In this document: piece by piece, positions 14,260 to 40,397 of the stretch
How the letters are laid out: each line of letters begins with the position of its first letter
Position numbering within the stretch: the first letter of the stretch is position 1
NCBI GenBank assembly: GCA_040880205.1
Contig: JBBDIU010000142.1
Location: 2,884-66,883, forward strand
DNA length: 64,000 nucleotides
Direction: 5' to 3'
Origin: Cellvibrionaceae bacterium
Lineage (GTDB): Bacteria; Pseudomonadota; Gammaproteobacteria; Pseudomonadales; Cellvibrionaceae
Notes under the pieces: generated by a model
The model's input: only the letters and a program-made list of their open reading frames with translations
What the model was told of the DNA's origin: nothing
Database searches by the model: none
Made by a program: the position numbers and the translations under genes

Positions 14260-14952
14260 TTATTCGATAGGAAGGCTATATGACACGACAAAATGAGCGT
14301 CTTTGTCTGAGGTGTTAAAGGCCGTATCTTCGTCGGCAACCAGTTTGCTAACGGTGAAGCTTAAGTTGTCGTTGTAGTGATAGGTCAAATCCAAATGCGT
14401 CGGATTGTCGTCGAGCCCATCGGGATCGTGCCGGCCAACCAATACCGAGAAATCACCGATATCCGCGCTGATGGTGAAGTAACTGTAATCTTCTCCCAGT
14501 GCGTAGGTACCCGGTTTTGACTCGATGTTATCGTAGTAGGACATACTAACGGGGCCGAACCCTAGCGTCAGAATCGCTTCCACGAAATCGCCCAGGTCGG
14601 TGTCGATCCCAGCCAACTCACCTTCGGGATAGACATAACTGACAACGGATAAATCATAGGAAAAGTCACCTACCGAACCGCCGTAACCCACAATAAGATC
14701 GTATTCCGTACCGGCGAAGTCGTCGCCGCTGGATCCCCATACCGTGCCGTGAAAACCTGCCACGCTAACACCGATATCACCCGACACGACCGCTGAGCCA
14801 AAACCCAGATCGTAGCCGCGCCACAAGTACATGTTGGAAATCCCCACGGAAGCACCAACTTCGACTTCAGCATTGGCGACAGGAGCTAGGGTCGCGGAAG
14901 CGGCAAACGCGGCGGCCGCCATGGAACACGTTAATGTTTTAGATAATTTCAT
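14260..14952 (-). CDS. TorF family putative outer-membrane porin
   Basis: Signal peptide; SNMYLWRG, WGSS, EYDLIVGY beta-strand pattern; upstream of glnK-amtB. Confidence 0.85.
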   Translation of the reverse strand: MKLSKTLTCSMAAAAFAASATLAPVANAEVEVGASVGISNMYLWRGYDLGFGSAVVSGDIGVSVAGFHGTVWGSSGDDFAGTEYDLIVGYGGSVGDFSYDLSVVSYVYPEGELAGIDTDLGDFVEAILTLGFGPVSMSYYDNIESKPGTYALGEDYSYFTISADIGDFSVLVGRHDPDGLDDNPTHLDLTYHYNDNLSFTVSKLVADEDTAFNTSDKDAHFVVSYSLPIE

Positions 14953-25298: not shown

Positions 25299-25973
25299 GT
25301 GGATCCCGGCGGGGTCCCGTCATTACCACAGGTGCAACCCGTGATCGACTTCCAACGCGCCCAGTTCAGCCAAAGCGCGCCCAGTGTTGCCGAATGCCCG
25401 CCCGACAGCGGGGCGGAAGTGGCCTTCGCGGGTCGCTCTAATGCCGGGAAGTCCAGCGCCATTAACTCCCTGACTGGCAACAACAAGCTGGCACGAACCA
25501 GCAAAACCCCCGGACGGACCCAGCTGATCAATTTTTTCGACCTTGACGCAGGGCGGCGCCTAGTCGACCTGCCGGGCTACGGTTACGCCAAGGTGCCGCG
25601 CGCGATCAAGGAACGATGGCAAAAACACCTATTGGAGTACCTGGAAAAGCGGCAAAGCCTGCGCGGCTTGGTGCTGCTCATGGATATTCGTCATCCGCTC
25701 CAGGAATACGATACCAAAATGCTCAATTGGGCTATACAGGTGGAGATGCCGGTGCATATCCTGCTCACCAAGGCCGATAAACTGAAGGCCGGTCAGCGTA
25801 ACAGCACGCTACTAAAACTGCGCCATCATTTGCAGGAGGCGGGGGTGGATGACCTGGTAAGTGCCCAGGCCTTTTCTTCCTTGAAAAAGCAAGGTCTGGA
25901 TGAGCTGGTGGTTAGGCTCAACGGCTGGCTGACGGATGCGGAATGCGCAGATGCCAATCAAGCGGGCAGCTAA
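25299..25973 (+). CDS. yihA: Ribosome biogenesis GTPase YihA/EngB
   Basis: [27 protein letters not shown]. True start may be GTG at 25332 or 25341. Confidence 0.96.
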
Positions 25974-26055
25974 CTCAAACCGTTGCGACAGAGCCGCGCG
26001 CCGACGCTCTCTGGTGTGACATAGCGCAATTGGTCTGCCGTAGCGCAAAAAAAGA

Positions 26056-26162
26056 CAAAAAAAACCCGACAGCTTGGGGCAACTATCGGGTCCAAAAACC
26101 AGTACTCTTGGGGCCGAGCACTGGAAGTTTTACTGAAACACATTGGGCATATGCTTCAGTAC
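26056..26162 (-). ncRNA. Candidate sRNA B: three hairpins with GCCC(C)A loops; last hairpin is the terminator
   Basis: Stems at 26131-26161, 26099-26124 and 26064-26091. Their non-Watson-Crick positions are all G-U on the minus strand. U8 tail follows; own sigmaE-type promoter upstream. Confidence 0.75.
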
Positions 26163-26168
26163 GTCAAG

Positions 26169-26195
26169 TGAGACTGGTTAGCCGACCGAATGTTC
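26169..26195 (-). promoter_or_regulatory. sigmaE/AlgU-type promoter of sRNA B
   Basis: Minus strand GAACAT-N16-TCTCA. Confidence 0.68.
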
Positions 26196-26220
26196 CCGAC
26201 CGCCAGCAAAAATCCAGGGC

Positions 26221-26331
26221 AAAAAAAGCCCCAGTGTTAAGACCGGGGCTACTTTGCTATCGGTTTGTGCTAAGCAAGGTTCGGCTTATAAAGCCAGCTA
26301 ATAGGAGAGTAAGACACCAATCAAATTGGTA
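26221..26331 (-). ncRNA. Candidate sRNA A (ErsA/Spot42 position) with anti-SD seed
   Basis: 5' hairpin ACCAAT-TTG-ATTGGT, then single-stranded CTTACTCTCCTATT, then terminator AGCCCCGGT...ACTGGGGCT + T-run; directly downstream of polA. Confidence 0.72.
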
Positions 26332-26335
26332 CGGT

Positions 26336-26362
26336 TAAGATTAGCTTAGCGAGAAAAAGTTC
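26336..26362 (-). promoter_or_regulatory. sigmaE/AlgU-type promoter of sRNA A
   Basis: Minus strand GAACTT-N16-TCTTA. Confidence 0.75.
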
Positions 26363-26433
26363 TCGACGAGGGGATGACGGATTTGTGCATCCAATCACGA
26401 TTCACCAGCGACCTGCTAGCGCTGTCGCGCAGT

Positions 26434-29160
26434 TCAGTGCGCCTCGTCCCAATTGTTGCCACTGCCCGCCTCCACCACCAGGGGCACAGCCAACTCCGCC
26501 GCGCTTCCCATCAGCTCACATAGGGTTTGGCTCACCTGTTCTACCGCTCCGGCTTCCACTTCCAGTACCAATTCGTCATGTACTTGCAGAATCATATTGG
26601 CCGGCACTTTCTCATTGTGTATCCAATTATCCACCGCGATCATTGCCTGCTTGATAATGTCCGCGGCACTGCCCTGCATTGGCGCGTTGATTGCCGTGCG
26701 CTCAGCGGCCTGCCGGCGCATGCCGTTGCGATCATTGATTTCCGGCAGGTACAAACGTCGCCCCATAATGGTTTGAACGTAGCCCTGTTCCCGAGCAAGG
26801 GCCCGCGTATTGTCCATGTAGCGACGCACACCGGGATAACGCTCGAAATAAAGATCAATATATTGTTGAGCTTCCTTGCGCCCGATGCGTAATTGGCGGG
26901 CAAGGCCAAAAGCGGACATGCCGTAAATAAGGCCAAAGTTAATGGCTTTGGCGCTACGGCGCTGCTCCGTGGTCACTTGATCGAGCGCCACACCAAACAC
27001 TTCGGCCGCAGTCGCCTGATGAACGTCGAGCCCCTCGGAAAACGCCCGCAATAGACCTTCGTCCCGCGACAGGTGCGCCATGATACGCAATTCAATTTGC
27101 GAGTAATCGGCGGCGACAATCTTGCAGCCGGACGGGGCGACAAATGCCTGTCGAATTCGGCGTCCTTCTTCCGTGCGAATGGGAATGTTTTGCAGGTTGG
27201 GATCGGAAGACGACAAACGACCCGTCGCTGTTACCGCTTGGTGATAGGAGGTATGCAAGCGTCCGGTTTCGGCGTTTATCATCTGCGGCAATTTGTCGGT
27301 ATAGGTGGACTTTAACTTGAACAGGCCGCGGAAGTTCATGATCAACTGCGGTAGGGGATAATCCAAGGCCAACTCCTGCAAGACTTCTTCGGCGGTGGAC
27401 GGCGCTCCCTTGGGCGTTTTTTTCAGGATTGGAAGTTTTAGTTTTTCGAATAACACCGCACAAAGTTGTTTCGGCGAACTAAGATTGAAAACCTCCCCGG
27501 CCATATCGCAAGCTTCTTCTTCGATTTGGCACAGCTTTTCGGCGATTTCCTGACTCTGCTTTTCCAGTGCCGCGCAATTGAGCAGCGCACCGCAACGTTC
27601 GATGCGCGACAGCACCGGCACCAGCGGTATTTCCAAACGCTCGAAAACTTGGCGCAAAGGGTCAATTGCTTCCAACTGCGGCCACAGGGTCTCGTGCAAT
27701 CGCAACGCGATATCGGCGTCTTCCGCCGCGTAAGGCGCGGCCAGTTCCAGCGGAATCGCATTGAAGGTCAGCTGCTTGGCGCCTTTTCCCGCGATCTCTT
27801 CAAAACGAACTGTGTTGTAGCTGAGGTGGCGGTTGGCCAGCGTGTCCATGTCGTGGCGGCTGGCGGTGGAATTGAGGACGTAGGATTCGAGCATTGTGTC
27901 GTAGGCAATGCCCTGTAGGTTGATGCCGTGATTGGCCAATATATTCTTGTCGTATTTCAGGTTCTGGCCGAGCTTGAGCTGCACCGGATTTTCCAACAGG
28001 GGTTTGAACCGCGCCAATACTTTGTCCAACGCGAGTTGTTGCGGCGCGCCTTCGTAGTCGTGCGCGACGGGCACGTAGGCCGCTTCTCCGGTTTGCACGG
28101 CAAACGACAGGCCGACCAGTCGTGCCTCCATATAATTGAGGCTGGTGGTTTCAGTGTCGAAGGCAAACACGGGCGCCGCTTCCAGACGCGCCAACCACTT
28201 TTCCAGCGCCGCCTCATCGAGGATGGTTTGATAATGGACCTTGTCCTTGTCCAGACTGTGAGCGGCGCGGGCCTCCTCACCACTCAACTCCACGAGCCAT
28301 TGTTTCAGTTCGTAGAGCTCGCACAATTCGATCAGTTTGCTGTGGTTCGCGGGATTAACCAGCAGGTCGGCCGGGGCCATGTCCAATTCGACATCGGTCT
28401 TGATGGTCGCCAGGCGGTAGGACAGGTAGGCTTGATCCTTATGTTCACGCAACTTGTCCGGCAGGCTCTTGGCCCCGCGCAGGGGCAATTCGGCCACGGC
28501 GTCGAGGTTGTGGTAGATATCATCCAGGCCGCCGAGCGCCTGGACCAGCCCAACCGCGGTCTTTTCACCGACGCCGGGCACTCCGGGAATATTGTCGGAC
28601 TTGTCGCCCATCAGCGCGAGAAAGTCGATCACCCGTTCGGGCGGGATGCCGAATTTGTCAATGACTCCCTGCCGGTCCATAACGGTATCGTTCATGGTAT
28701 TGACCAGCGTTACATGGGGGCTAACCAGCTGGGCCATGTCCTTGTCGCCAGTGGAAATCAGCACGTGGTGGCCTTCTCGCGTCGCCTGACAGGCCAGGGT
28801 GCCGATCACGTCATCCGCTTCCACGCCCTCAATAATCAACAGCGGCAGGCCCATGGCGCAGATAAGGTCATGCACCGCCTGGACCTGGCTGCGCAATTCA
28901 TCTGGCATTGGGGGTCGGTGGGATTTGTATTCGGCGAAGATTTCGTCGCGAAATGTTTTGCCCTTCGCATCAAATACCACGGCAATTTGGCTATTGGGAT
29001 AGTCCTTTTGCAGGCGCCGCAGCATGTTGGTCACCACCAGAATGGCGCCGGTGGCCCGGCCATCCCGGGTGCGAAGATTTTTGCTCTGCATGGCGTGGTA
29101 GGCACGGTAGAGGTAGGAGGATCCATCCACCAACACCAGGGGTACTGTTGCTGAGTTCAT
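26434..29160 (-). CDS. polA: DNA polymerase I
   Basis: [14 protein letters not shown] 5'-3' exonuclease, FDTET 3'-5' exonuclease, [26 protein letters not shown] at 29160. Confidence 0.98.
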
Positions 29161-29266
29161 ATTCGATCTAATGTGATGATGCGTGAAAGGGCCTATCTTA
29201 CCGTTCTCGCGCGACAGTGTTGGATTTTTTGTTGAAAGCGAGTGCTTACACACCCGCATATTTCCA

Positions 29267-29282
29267 TGGCACAAGAATAGCT
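29267..29282 (+). promoter_or_regulatory. Possible sigma54 promoter
   Basis: TGGCAC-AAGAA-TAGCT (GG-N10-GC) upstream of the 104-aa ORF. Confidence 0.45.
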
Positions 29283-37668: not shown

Positions 37669-39222
37669 TCATTTAACCTGTGGCGGTGTACTAAAGGTGT
37701 GGTAAGGCGCCGGCGACGGCACTGTCCACTCCAACCCTTCGGCGCCGTCCCAGACTTTGTCTTTGTCGGCTTTCTTGCCGCCAACAATGGTGCTGATGAC
37801 GTTAAACAGCAACAGAAGTTGCGCCATACCGAACATAAATGCGCCGATGCTGGACAGCATATTAAAGTCGGCAAACTGCACCGCGTAATCGGGGACCCGC
37901 CGTTGCATACCCGCCAGGCCGACAAAATGCTGAGGGAAAAATGCCAGGTTAAAGCCGACGAAGGCTATCCAGAATTGGGTCTTGCCCAGCATTTCGTTGT
38001 ACATGTTCCCAGTCCACTTGGGCAGCCAGTAGTAAATACCTGCGGTCAGACTGAAAATAGCGCCGGCTACCATGGTGTAGTGGAAATGCGCAACAACAAA
38101 ATAGCTGTCGTGGTATTGAATATCAGCCGAGGCAATGCCCAGCATCAGACCCGTAAAGCCGCCCATCACAAACAAAACCACGAACGCAATGGCGAATAAC
38201 ATGGGGGTTTCAAATGTTAGCGAGCCTCGCCACATGGTGGTAATCCAGTTAAACACCTTAACTCCCGTGGGAACCGCGATCAGCATGGTGGCGTACATGA
38301 AGTAAAGTTCGCCGGCGATGGGCATACCCACTGTGAACATGTGGTGCGCCCACACGATAAAGCTGAGGAAGGCGATACTGGCCGTGGCATACACCATGGA
38401 CGAATAACCAAACAGGGGCTTGCGGGAAAACGCCGGAATCACCTGGGAAACCACCCCAAAACCCGGAAGAATAATAATGTATACCTCGGGATGGCCGAAG
38501 AACCAGAACACGTGCTGGAAGAGCACCGGATCGCCGCCACCCGCCGCATCGAAGAAGGAAGTGCCGAAATGGATGTCCATCAGCATCATGGTAACCGCGC
38601 CCGCCAGCACCGGCATCACCGACACCAGCAGGTAGGCGGTGATCAGCCAGGTCCAGACAAACAAGGGCATTTTCGTCAGGGTCATGCCGGGGGCGCGCAA
38701 ATTGAGCACCGTGGCAATAATGTTAATGGAACCCATAATGGACGAAGCGCCCATGATGTGAATGGCAAATATAAAGAAAGTCACCGACGGCGGCGCGTAG
38801 GTAGTGGACAAGGGGGCGTAAAAAGTCCAACCAAAATTTGGGCCGCCACCTTCCATGAACATGGTGGACGCCAGCATCAAAAAGGCAAACGGGAGGATCC
38901 AGAAACTCCAGTTGTTCATGCGCGGAAGGGCCATGTCTGGAGCGCCGATCATCATCGGGATCATCCAGTTCGCCAAGCCGACGAAGGCGGGCATAATGGC
39001 ACCGAACACCATCACCAGGCCGTGCATGGTGGTCATCTGATTGAAAAACTCGGGGTCGACAATTTGCAGGCCGGGCTGAAATAGCTCCGCGCGAATAATC
39101 ATCGCGAAGGCGCCGCCCAACAGAAACATAGCCATGCTGAACCACAAGTACAGCGTGCCTATGTCTTTGTGGTTAGTCGTAAACAACCAACGACCAATGC
39201 CTTTTGCAGGACCGTGTGCCAC
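37669..39222 (-). CDS. coxA: Cytochrome c oxidase subunit I (A1 type)
   Basis: TNHKDIG, GHPEVY, WAHH, VVAHFH; GTG start. Confidence 0.98.
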   Translation of the reverse strand: MAHGPAKGIGRWLFTTNHKDIGTLYLWFSMAMFLLGGAFAMIIRAELFQPGLQIVDPEFFNQMTTMHGLVMVFGAIMPAFVGLANWMIPMMIGAPDMALPRMNNWSFWILPFAFLMLASTMFMEGGGPNFGWTFYAPLSTTYAPPSVTFFIFAIHIMGASSIMGSINIIATVLNLRAPGMTLTKMPLFVWTWLITAYLLVSVMPVLAGAVTMMLMDIHFGTSFFDAAGGGDPVLFQHVFWFFGHPEVYIIILPGFGVVSQVIPAFSRKPLFGYSSMVYATASIAFLSFIVWAHHMFTVGMPIAGELYFMYATMLIAVPTGVKVFNWITTMWRGSLTFETPMLFAIAFVVLFVMGGFTGLMLGIASADIQYHDSYFVVAHFHYTMVAGAIFSLTAGIYYWLPKWTGNMYNEMLGKTQFWIAFVGFNLAFFPQHFVGLAGMQRRVPDYAVQFADFNMLSSIGAFMFGMAQLLLLFNVISTIVGGKKADKDKVWDGAEGLEWTVPSPAPYHTFSTPPQVK

Positions 39223-39233
39223 TGTTTACTCTC

Positions 39234-40397
39234 CTATTGTTCGAACTGTAATACGTCGACGGGCTGAACTTGATCGCCCATGTCATTACCAAAGGCGTTA
39301 CGTTGGAAGGTAACGACGGCTGCGGTTTCAACCGGCGTCAGCTGTGCGCCGAAAGCCTGCATCGCGGTTCCCGGAACGCCATTGACCACGACGTCCAAGT
39401 GTTCTTCGATGGTGCCAGTGGCAACGGCGCTGCCCCGAATGGCCGGAAACGCACCCGGAACACCTTCGCCGTTTGGCCCATGGCAGGAAGCACAAGAGCG
39501 GTTGTAAACGGATTGCCCTTGCGAATAGAGATCCTCGAAGGAAAAAGTCTGGCCGGCCAGCTCGCGCATTTCCGCGGCGAAGGCTTGCTGTTCGGCGATC
39601 CACTGGTCAAACTCTTCCTCTTCCACCGCTTTCACCACAAAGGGCATAAAGCCGTGATCACGGCCGCACAGCTCCGCACAGACGCCCCGGTAAACTCCGG
39701 GCTCCTCGATTTTGGCCCAGGATTCGCGCACAAATCCCGGTATTGCGTCTCGCTTGACGCCCAGATCGGGGACCCACCAGGAGTGAATGACGTCGTTGGC
39801 GGTTACCAGAAAACGGATTTTTTTGTTGATCGGCAGTACCAAGGGGCGGTCAACTTCGAGCAGGTAATTGGGAACGGTTCTAGGATCAATACCAGAACCG
39901 AGCTGCCGGGCGGCATTGCTGTCTTCGTGCAGATTGGAAAAAAAGCTCACATTGCGGCCCAGGTATTCGTACTGCCATTTCCACTGGTAACCGGTTATTA
40001 CCACATCCATATCCACGTCGGTGTCGGTGTCGTAGAGATGAATCAATGATCGGGTTGCGGGAATCGCCATGGCGACAAGAATGAGGAAGGGCACCGCGGT
40101 CCAAAAGATCTCCAGGCCGAGGTGCTCATGGAATTGTGAAGCCTGGGGATGTTTGGATTTGCGGTGCGCATACATGGTGTAGGCGAGCGCGGCAAATACG
40201 ACAACGCTGATGGCCACACAGATGATGAAAATCAACATGTGCAGCCCATAAATTTCCTGGCTGACAGGTGTTACGCCCCGGGTCATATTGACCCCCCAAC
40301 GCTCGGCTTCGTTCGCGATCGCCTGGTGGCCTGTCAGGCCTAGCAGGATTGCGAAACCTAGCAGCTGGTGGAAAAGCAGTTTGGCTCTTCTCAACAT
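39234..40397 (-). CDS. coxB: Cytochrome c oxidase subunit II with fused cytochrome c
   Basis: DVIHSW, CAELCGRDHGFM CuA motif, C-terminal CASCH. Confidence 0.97.
   Translation of the reverse strand: MLRRAKLLFHQLLGFAILLGLTGHQAIANEAERWGVNMTRGVTPVSQEIYGLHMLIFIICVAISVVVFAALAYTMYAHRKSKHPQASQFHEHLGLEIFWTAVPFLILVAMAIPATRSLIHLYDTDTDVDMDVVITGYQWKWQYEYLGRNVSFFSNLHEDSNAARQLGSGIDPRTVPNYLLEVDRPLVLPINKKIRFLVTANDVIHSWWVPDLGVKRDAIPGFVRESWAKIEEPGVYRGVCAELCGRDHGFMPFVVKAVEEEEFDQWIAEQQAFAAEMRELAGQTFSFEDLYSQGQSVYNRSCASCHGPNGEGVPGAFPAIRGSAVATGTIEEHLDVVVNGVPGTAMQAFGAQLTPVETAAVVTFQRNAFGNDMGDQVQPVDVLQFEQ

Follow-up and report, generated by a model that had tools for sequence, protein, structure and literature searches.

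A putative sigma-E-type small RNA gene downstream of polA in Cellvibrionaceae and its predicted pairing with the coxA ribosome-binding site

Results and Discussion

Anatomy of the polA-engB spacer

The window analysed here is a 64,000-nt stretch of a genome from the family Cellvibrionaceae. In it, polA (26434-29274, minus strand, Pfam DNA_pol_A) and engB (25299-25973, plus strand) flank a spacer that contains a short minus-strand transcription unit, referred to as Unit A. Its promoter is located 70 nt past the polA stop (26434). The flanking gene layout equals that of E. coli polA-spf-yihA, and in P. aeruginosa the ersA gene is situated in the polA-engB spacer on the strand of polA (PMC8575079), in line with the first-pass annotation of this DNA, which had named the locus as the slot of Spot 42 and ErsA. 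The same annotation had described a promoter GAACTT-N16-TCTTA (26362-26336), a body of about 110 nt and an intrinsic terminator, and all three were read and folded as claimed. The assignment of Unit A as a promoter-body-terminator sRNA unit at the Spot 42/ErsA chromosomal slot is supported. It comprises the following features:

26357-26362, minus strand: -35 element GAACTT of a sigma-E (RpoE/AlgU)-type promoter, read directly
26336-26340, minus strand: -10 element TCTTA, separated from the -35 element by a 16-nt spacer
26221-26331, minus strand: sRNA body of about 111 nt, from the predicted fold and from homologues found with the covariance model R1
26315-26331, minus strand: 5' hairpin ACCAAU / AUUGGU, predicted fold
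26304-26316, minus strand: invariant 13-nt seed block UGUCUUACUCUCC, consensus UGUCUURCUCUCC, from an alignment of 20 copies
26300-26312, minus strand: 13-nt stretch UUACUCUCCUAUU singled out by the first-pass annotation, within an 18-nt single strand, read directly
26282-26296, minus strand: second hairpin GGCUU...AAGCC, predicted fold
26221-26250, minus strand: intrinsic terminator with a 9-bp G+C-rich stem (26250-26227) and T7 (U7 in the RNA), terminator consensus scan

Placed 6-8 nt past the -10 element, the transcription start would lie near 26329-26331. The predicted fold, with a modest z value of -2.4, consists of the 5' hairpin, the 18-nt single strand, the second hairpin and the terminator in this order. 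The seed block includes the anti-Shine-Dalgarno motif CUCUCC. Positions 26312-26300 of the minus strand read TTACTCTCCTATT and are unpaired in the predicted fold, with a predicted probability of 0.66 that all 13 nt are unpaired. The last four bases (UAUU) of UUACUCUCCUAUU are genus-specific, and the 3' flank of the seed varies between genera.

Promoter type

The genome contains 17 copies of GAACTT-N16/17-TC..A, compared to about 30 expected, and this motif is not rare alone; the significance of the Unit A promoter therefore derives from its conservation and not from the motif itself. The genome encodes RpoE (TIGR02939, 328 bits) as well as RpoH (TIGR02392, 403 bits), and the corresponding genes are preceded by GAACTT-N16-TCTAG and GAACTT-N16-TCTAA, respectively. 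Of 19 relatives, 11 retain the rpoE promoter. A search of 25800-26600 detected no sigma-70-like promoter in the spacer. Conserved upstream of Unit A and also found before rpoE and rpoH, the motif is best explained by sigma-E transcription, and RpoE (sigma-E/AlgU) most likely transcribes Unit A from GAACTT-N16-TCTTA. The sigma-E-type promoter proposed by the first-pass annotation is thereby corroborated at the level of the motif. Furthermore, an hfq gene is present (Hfq, 100 bits). Together with the conserved promoter (motif level), the accessible seed and the terminator with its U-tail, Unit A exhibits the features of the sigma-E sRNA class.

Conservation and distribution

About 25 copies of Unit A were found across 19 Cellvibrionaceae genomes, including Pseudomaricurvus, Maricurvus, Exilibacterium, Candidatus Pelagadaptatus and MAGs. 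Common to them are the type of promoter, a terminator with covariation and a single 13-nt block that does not vary, UGUCUURCUCUCC. When one genome per species was scanned for the pattern (185,579 species), 20 loci were obtained, 19 of which belong to Cellvibrionaceae. These loci were chosen by their promoter, so that only covariance-model matches provide an independent test of promoter conservation. With the body-only model R1, homologues were detected in four further genera. Upstream of each R1 homologue, and correctly spaced, lies GAACT(T/A)-N16-TC..A, a promoter that is not part of the model. The -10 elements of the homologues read TCCTA, TCTTA, TCTGA, TCAGA, TCTCA, TCATA or TCTAA, and the spacers are variable.

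In the 20-copy alignment (53% mean column identity) the sole invariant internal block is TGTCTT[A/G]CTCTCC, corresponding to 26316-26304 of the window. Compensatory changes are present in four of the seven consensus stem pairs of the terminator, and the 5' hairpin occurs at the same place in the homologues with different sequences such as ACAACA/UGUUGU and AAGAUAUU/GGUGUCUU. The copy in the same-genus genome 'Proteobacteria bacterium 005FR1' is 86% identical to that of the window, and the indel lengths are not divisible by three. It retains the -35 and -10 elements, the whole seed, the 5' hairpin and the second stem, the latter two with altered loops; the promoter spacer is also altered, and the differences in the terminator stem are compensatory.

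A small open reading frame within Unit A was rejected as a coding sequence due to the congener indels, which are not multiples of three, and the lack of a conserved start. For the same reasons a 131-aa open reading frame on the plus strand (25943-26338), which runs antisense across Unit A and the second unit described below, is regarded as spurious.

Nearly all copies of Unit A follow directly after polA, and the polA-engB location is also found in 17 related genomes. Tandem duplicates occur in three genomes and copies away from polA in two. The family appears to be limited to one branch of the Cellvibrionaceae, directly downstream of polA, and is robust in about five genera. Its conservation follows the classic pattern of a trans-acting sRNA. 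The conservation across genera, the covariation of the terminator and the invariant, exposed seed argue for Unit A being a real sRNA gene.

It is very improbable that Unit A is no independent gene but the 3' UTR and terminator of polA, or a cis element belonging to the unit downstream. Termination as such needs no invariant single-stranded 13-mer, and the conserved promoter 70 nt past the polA stop as well as the extra copies that are found in tandem (three genomes) or away from polA (two genomes) are difficult to reconcile with this explanation. In favour of it, no terminator separates Unit A from the polA stop (26434), as a consequence of which read-through from polA must end at the terminator of Unit A.

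A second unit and the known small RNAs of the locus

Directly downstream of Unit A, the spacer contains a second unit:

26053-26195, minus strand: Unit B, promoter GAACAT-N16-TCTCA (26195-26169) and an RNA of about 111 nt (26053-26163), from the fold and with its own terminator

Unit B forms three strong hairpins, two of them with GCCCCAAG loops, and shows a z value of -7.9. Rfam scores of 27 bits for Pseudomon-1/ErsA (gathering 50; 26049-26150) and 15.5 bits for anti-hemB were obtained, and the unit scores 31.4 bits against ErsA and 28-29 bits against sX13 in relatives. With an occurrence in 14 of 50 sampled Cellvibrionaceae genera it is more widely spread than Unit A. The covariance models R1 and R2 each match their own unit only. 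The first-pass annotation had suggested to check the region for ErsA and Spot 42 in Rfam: for Unit A of the window no family was found with gathering as well as permissive thresholds (E up to 10), RF01719 and RF00021 included, and the ErsA-like RNA turned out to be the second unit at 26053-26163. On the basis of these scores Unit B, and not Unit A, is the ErsA-like RNA of the locus and fits the anti-hemB/sX13/ErsA group. Since both units coexist and the Rfam signal of the spacer falls on Unit B alone, Unit A is an additional gene, inserted after polA and ahead of the ancestral RNA (Unit B).

These findings also bear on the idea of Unit A as an orthologue of ErsA or Spot 42 that has diverged, which we consider highly unlikely. 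The location in the same polA-engB slot and the sigma-E-type promoter, similar to that of ErsA, would fit such an origin, and the Unit A copy of 005FR1 gave a weak match to Spot_42 (28.7 bits, E 0.057). This score falls, however, well short of the gathering threshold of 80. Neither RF01719 nor RF00021 matched Unit A of the window, even with E values up to 10 allowed, the ErsA-like signal lies on the coexisting Unit B, and R1 and R2 are unit-specific.

ErsA (RF01719, Pseudomon-1), an sRNA of the Hfq type, is transcribed from a sigma-22/AlgU promoter and has a pairing region that is unstructured and flanked by hairpins (PMC8575079). Unit A shares with ErsA the slot between polA and engB and, at the motif level, the sigma-E-type promoter. 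In contrast, it exhibits no detectable match in sequence or structure, and its seed is a linear anti-Shine-Dalgarno sequence, whereas ErsA possesses a U-rich domain II and C-rich loops. Such C-rich loops, as well as model matches to anti-hemB (RF02837) and sX13 (RF02232), are absent from Unit A; the weak matches to these families are located on Unit B.

Spot 42 (spf, RF00021) is CRP-controlled and sigma-70-dependent and pairs at the internal galK ribosome-binding site of an operon. Unit A occupies the same slot, and galK is a precedent for pairing inside an operon. The window's Unit A differs by the missing model match; no sigma-70-like promoter was found in its spacer. A different group of sRNAs, MicA, RybB and MicL of E. 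coli and Salmonella and VrrA/MicV of Vibrio, combines a sigma-E promoter, a short conserved seed and an Hfq-type terminator with translational repression in envelope stress, the targets being mRNAs of outer-membrane proteins and lipoproteins. This group has no sequence relation to Unit A and serves as the working analogy for its design. In difference to MicA, RybB and MicL, no conserved outer-membrane or lipoprotein target was found for Unit A.

Starting from the Unit A gene with its conservation, its promoter type and its invariant, accessible seed, we consider it likely that Unit A is a trans-acting sRNA of an undescribed family that is transcribed by sigma-E and uses its anti-Shine-Dalgarno seed on several mRNAs. 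RpoE (sigma-E/AlgU) would transcribe the unit in envelope stress, with the intrinsic terminator ending the RNA. The seed UGUCUURCUCUCC would then pair over the ribosome-binding sites of several mRNAs, presumably assisted by Hfq, and this pairing would block the initiation of translation during envelope stress.

Pairing with coxA in this genome

The cox genes are encoded on the minus strand of the window, where coxB (39234-40397) is followed by coxA (37669-39222, GUG start), ctaG and coxC. The predicted interaction site is located at the junction of the first two genes:

39226-39238, minus strand: predicted pairing site on the cox mRNA, AAUAGGAGAGUAA, exact complement of the 13-nt stretch of Unit A

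The first-pass annotation had reported an exact complementarity between the exposed 13 nt and the cox mRNA, and this could be verified: the plus strand at 39226-39238 reads TTACTCTCCTATT, identical to the minus strand at 26312-26300, and the cox mRNA reads AAUAGGAGAGUAA. As it had also claimed, the site spans the coxB UAG stop (39236-39234) and the subsequent coxA Shine-Dalgarno sequence GGAGAG and ends 3 nt before the coxA GUG (39222-39220). The extra pairs proposed beyond the 13-mer are possible. Outside the Unit A gene, the 13-mer occurs at a single place in the 2.93-Mb assembly, namely the coxA site. With a predicted hybrid energy of -17.1 and a site opening of 3.1, a net value of about -13.8 kcal/mol results. 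Net energies of this size are within the usual range for sRNA targets.

For comparison, 2,946 Shine-Dalgarno-containing start regions from a gene set of 2,895 ORFs were ranked by duplex energy. coxA was found at rank 2 with -23.8 kcal/mol, so that its ribosome-binding site is among the two best predicted sites of Unit A in this genome. Seeds in which the flanks were shuffled and CUCUCC was kept fixed gave a perfect run of at least 13 nt to some start region in 2.7% of 20,000 cases with the realistic gene set and in 4.7% with a liberal ORF set. The second-best match equalled or exceeded the coxA energy of -23.8 in 45 of 120 shuffled seeds; the energy itself is not unusual. Overall, the 13-nt match to coxA is statistically marginal and barely above chance.

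The cox operon is located about 13 kb from the polA-engB spacer in the window, and distances of 14-32 kb were observed in all five relatives for which both were recorded (L009/L029, L010/L028, L011/L031, L012/L032 and L016/L030). This proximity of cox and sRNA is conserved gene order and no sign of a functional link.

Pairing with coxA in relatives

The coxA sites of the compared genomes read as follows:

This genome: UAGGAGAGUAA
005FR1 (same genus): UAGGAGGUAA
Next genus: UAGGAGGAGUAA
Other genera: mostly AGGAGGUAAAC or GGGAGGG variants

In all 18 relatives the longest Watson-Crick run between the seed and the coxA start region amounts to 4-8 nt, and no compensatory change was observed. Among the 19 genomes compared, GGAGAGUAA is present in this genome only. 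Even 005FR1, with an identical seed, possesses a coxA site that is 1 nt shorter. The two nearest genera show partial pairing of 8+4 bp or 6+5 bp with a bulge (-18 to -21 kcal/mol). The pairing that persists across relatives is generic pairing of Shine-Dalgarno and anti-Shine-Dalgarno sequences. coxA was rejected as a conserved target because the pairing is lost in 18 relatives despite the invariant seed. The first-pass annotation had itself named missing conservation of the pairing in relatives as an argument against its proposal, and this is what was found: the seed is invariant and the coxA site drifts without compensation. Sequence comparison presents the coxA pairing as an apparently recent, species-specific feature and not as a conserved function of Unit A.

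According to the role favoured by the first-pass annotation, Unit A exists to stop the synthesis of CoxA within the coxBA operon in envelope stress, in a discoordinate manner comparable to Spot 42 and galK. We regard this role as unlikely. The perfect Watson-Crick run of 13 nt, without a second copy in the genome and second of 2,946 by energy, the accessible seed with a net energy of about -13.8 kcal/mol and the pairing partly kept in the two nearest genera speak for it, but they have to be weighed against runs of 4-8 nt without compensation in 18 sRNA-carrying relatives, among them 005FR1 with its site shortened by 1 nt. Runs of at least 13 nt in 2.7% of the shuffled seeds, an energy equalled in 45 of 120 and a stronger site elsewhere in the genome point in the same direction. 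Additionally, ribosomes that terminate at the coxB stop, which lies within the duplex, would be expected to unwind it. Upregulation of the cox operon has been observed in an hfq mutant of P. aeruginosa PA14 (PMC6237836); control of cox at the post-transcriptional level is conceivable on this basis, the observation being uninformative on Unit A. The nearest precedent for a repression of CoxA, in the sense of inner-membrane protection, is CpxQ of E. coli and Salmonella, an envelope-stress sRNA with a role in protecting the cytoplasmic membrane (PMC4817254). CpxQ differs in that it belongs to the Cpx response and not to sigma-E, is cut from the cpxP 3' UTR and has no sequence relation to Unit A. 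At best, coxA would be a species-specific target of Unit A, and even this is doubtful.

Other candidate targets

Three further candidates are defined by the following start regions:

Contig C101, start 2263 (locus L119:2042-2263), minus strand: gene of a 73-aa membrane protein, ribosome-binding site GCAAUAGGAGGGUAGGACAUG
Window 14260-14952, minus strand: outer-membrane-like protein of 230 aa with a signal peptide, ribosome-binding site GGAGAUUAAGAAAUG
Contig C103, start 16809 (locus L101), minus strand: rpoE start region GGGGAGUGG, 9-bp pairing with the seed, 3 G-U pairs included

The best duplex of the genome is predicted between Unit A and the start of the 73-aa predicted membrane protein (18-20 bp, -28.9 kcal/mol), which is encoded after an ABC ATPase within a DUF2807-GntR-ABC operon. 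This energy was attained by 3 of 120 shuffled seeds. The protein was rejected as a conserved target, as the site is absent from three relatives.

The site GGAGAUUAAGAAAUG of the outer-membrane-like protein is partly complementary to the invariant seed, and the same-genus copy exhibits 12 of 13 seed-complement bases. It was not retained as a conserved target because only 4 of 19 genomes contain the gene and the match in this genome is weaker. A GT2 glycosyltransferase (contig C38) shows a 12-bp pairing with the invariant block and was likewise discarded, since close orthologues (at least 70% identity) are present in 2 of 18 genomes. The alignments of the GT2 orthologues begin about 20 residues downstream, so that the true start may lie elsewhere than at the pairing site.

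In Pseudomaricurvus alkylphenolicus the pairing between the seed and the rpoE start region extends up to 14 bp (-27.3 kcal/mol). The rpoE pairing may represent a negative feedback on sigma-E, a possibility that is indistinguishable across genomes from generic pairing with a strong Shine-Dalgarno sequence. A search for the seed-complement pattern in five relatives gave a slight enrichment over the reversed control with no recurring gene. In the relatives, no conserved and specific pairing was found for coxA, the 73-aa protein, GT2, the outer-membrane-like protein or rpoE.

Both best sites, those of coxA and of the 73-aa protein, are located at operon junctions after CAAUAG, and both are peculiar to this genome. 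A difference of one base in the coxA Shine-Dalgarno sequence, GGAGAGUAA compared to GGAGGUAA or GGAGGAGUAA in relatives, is sufficient to make the perfect 13-bp site. The two junction sites are suggestive of a recent gain of targets, short of proof. That the sigma-E sRNA gained new intra-operon targets in one species through changes in the targets, with the RNA itself unchanged, is nevertheless rather improbable in our assessment. If true, envelope stress would switch off the large subunit of the aa3 oxidase together with another inner-membrane protein in this lineage only, and the rewiring of an sRNA regulon by target evolution could be observed.

Significance of the family

Absent from Rfam and from the literature searched, in which no paper on sRNAs of Cellvibrionaceae was found, the Unit A family would enlarge the small set of sigma-E-type riboregulators. 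The polA-engB spacer, host to Spot 42 in enterics and to RNAs of the ErsA, anti-hemB and sX13 type elsewhere, can hold two unrelated sRNA genes with stress promoters in series and appears as a recurrent birthplace of sRNA genes. We know of no sigma-E sRNA that targets a haem-copper oxidase; a link to respiration via coxA would be of interest if true and is not carried by the present evidence. Pseudomaricurvus, Maricurvus and Exilibacterium are cultured marine bacteria that degrade hydrocarbons and alkylphenols, and the occurrence of Unit A in cultured genera makes the family open to experiment.

The number and the length of the copies vary within the family. Three Pseudomaricurvus genomes (L063, L078 and L081) contain tandem pairs of Unit A after polA, and copies elsewhere were observed at the loci L064, L068 and L033. 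One MAG carries a second copy away from polA. In one sea-ice MAG three short copies of about 57 nt occur, in which the middle hairpins are missing.
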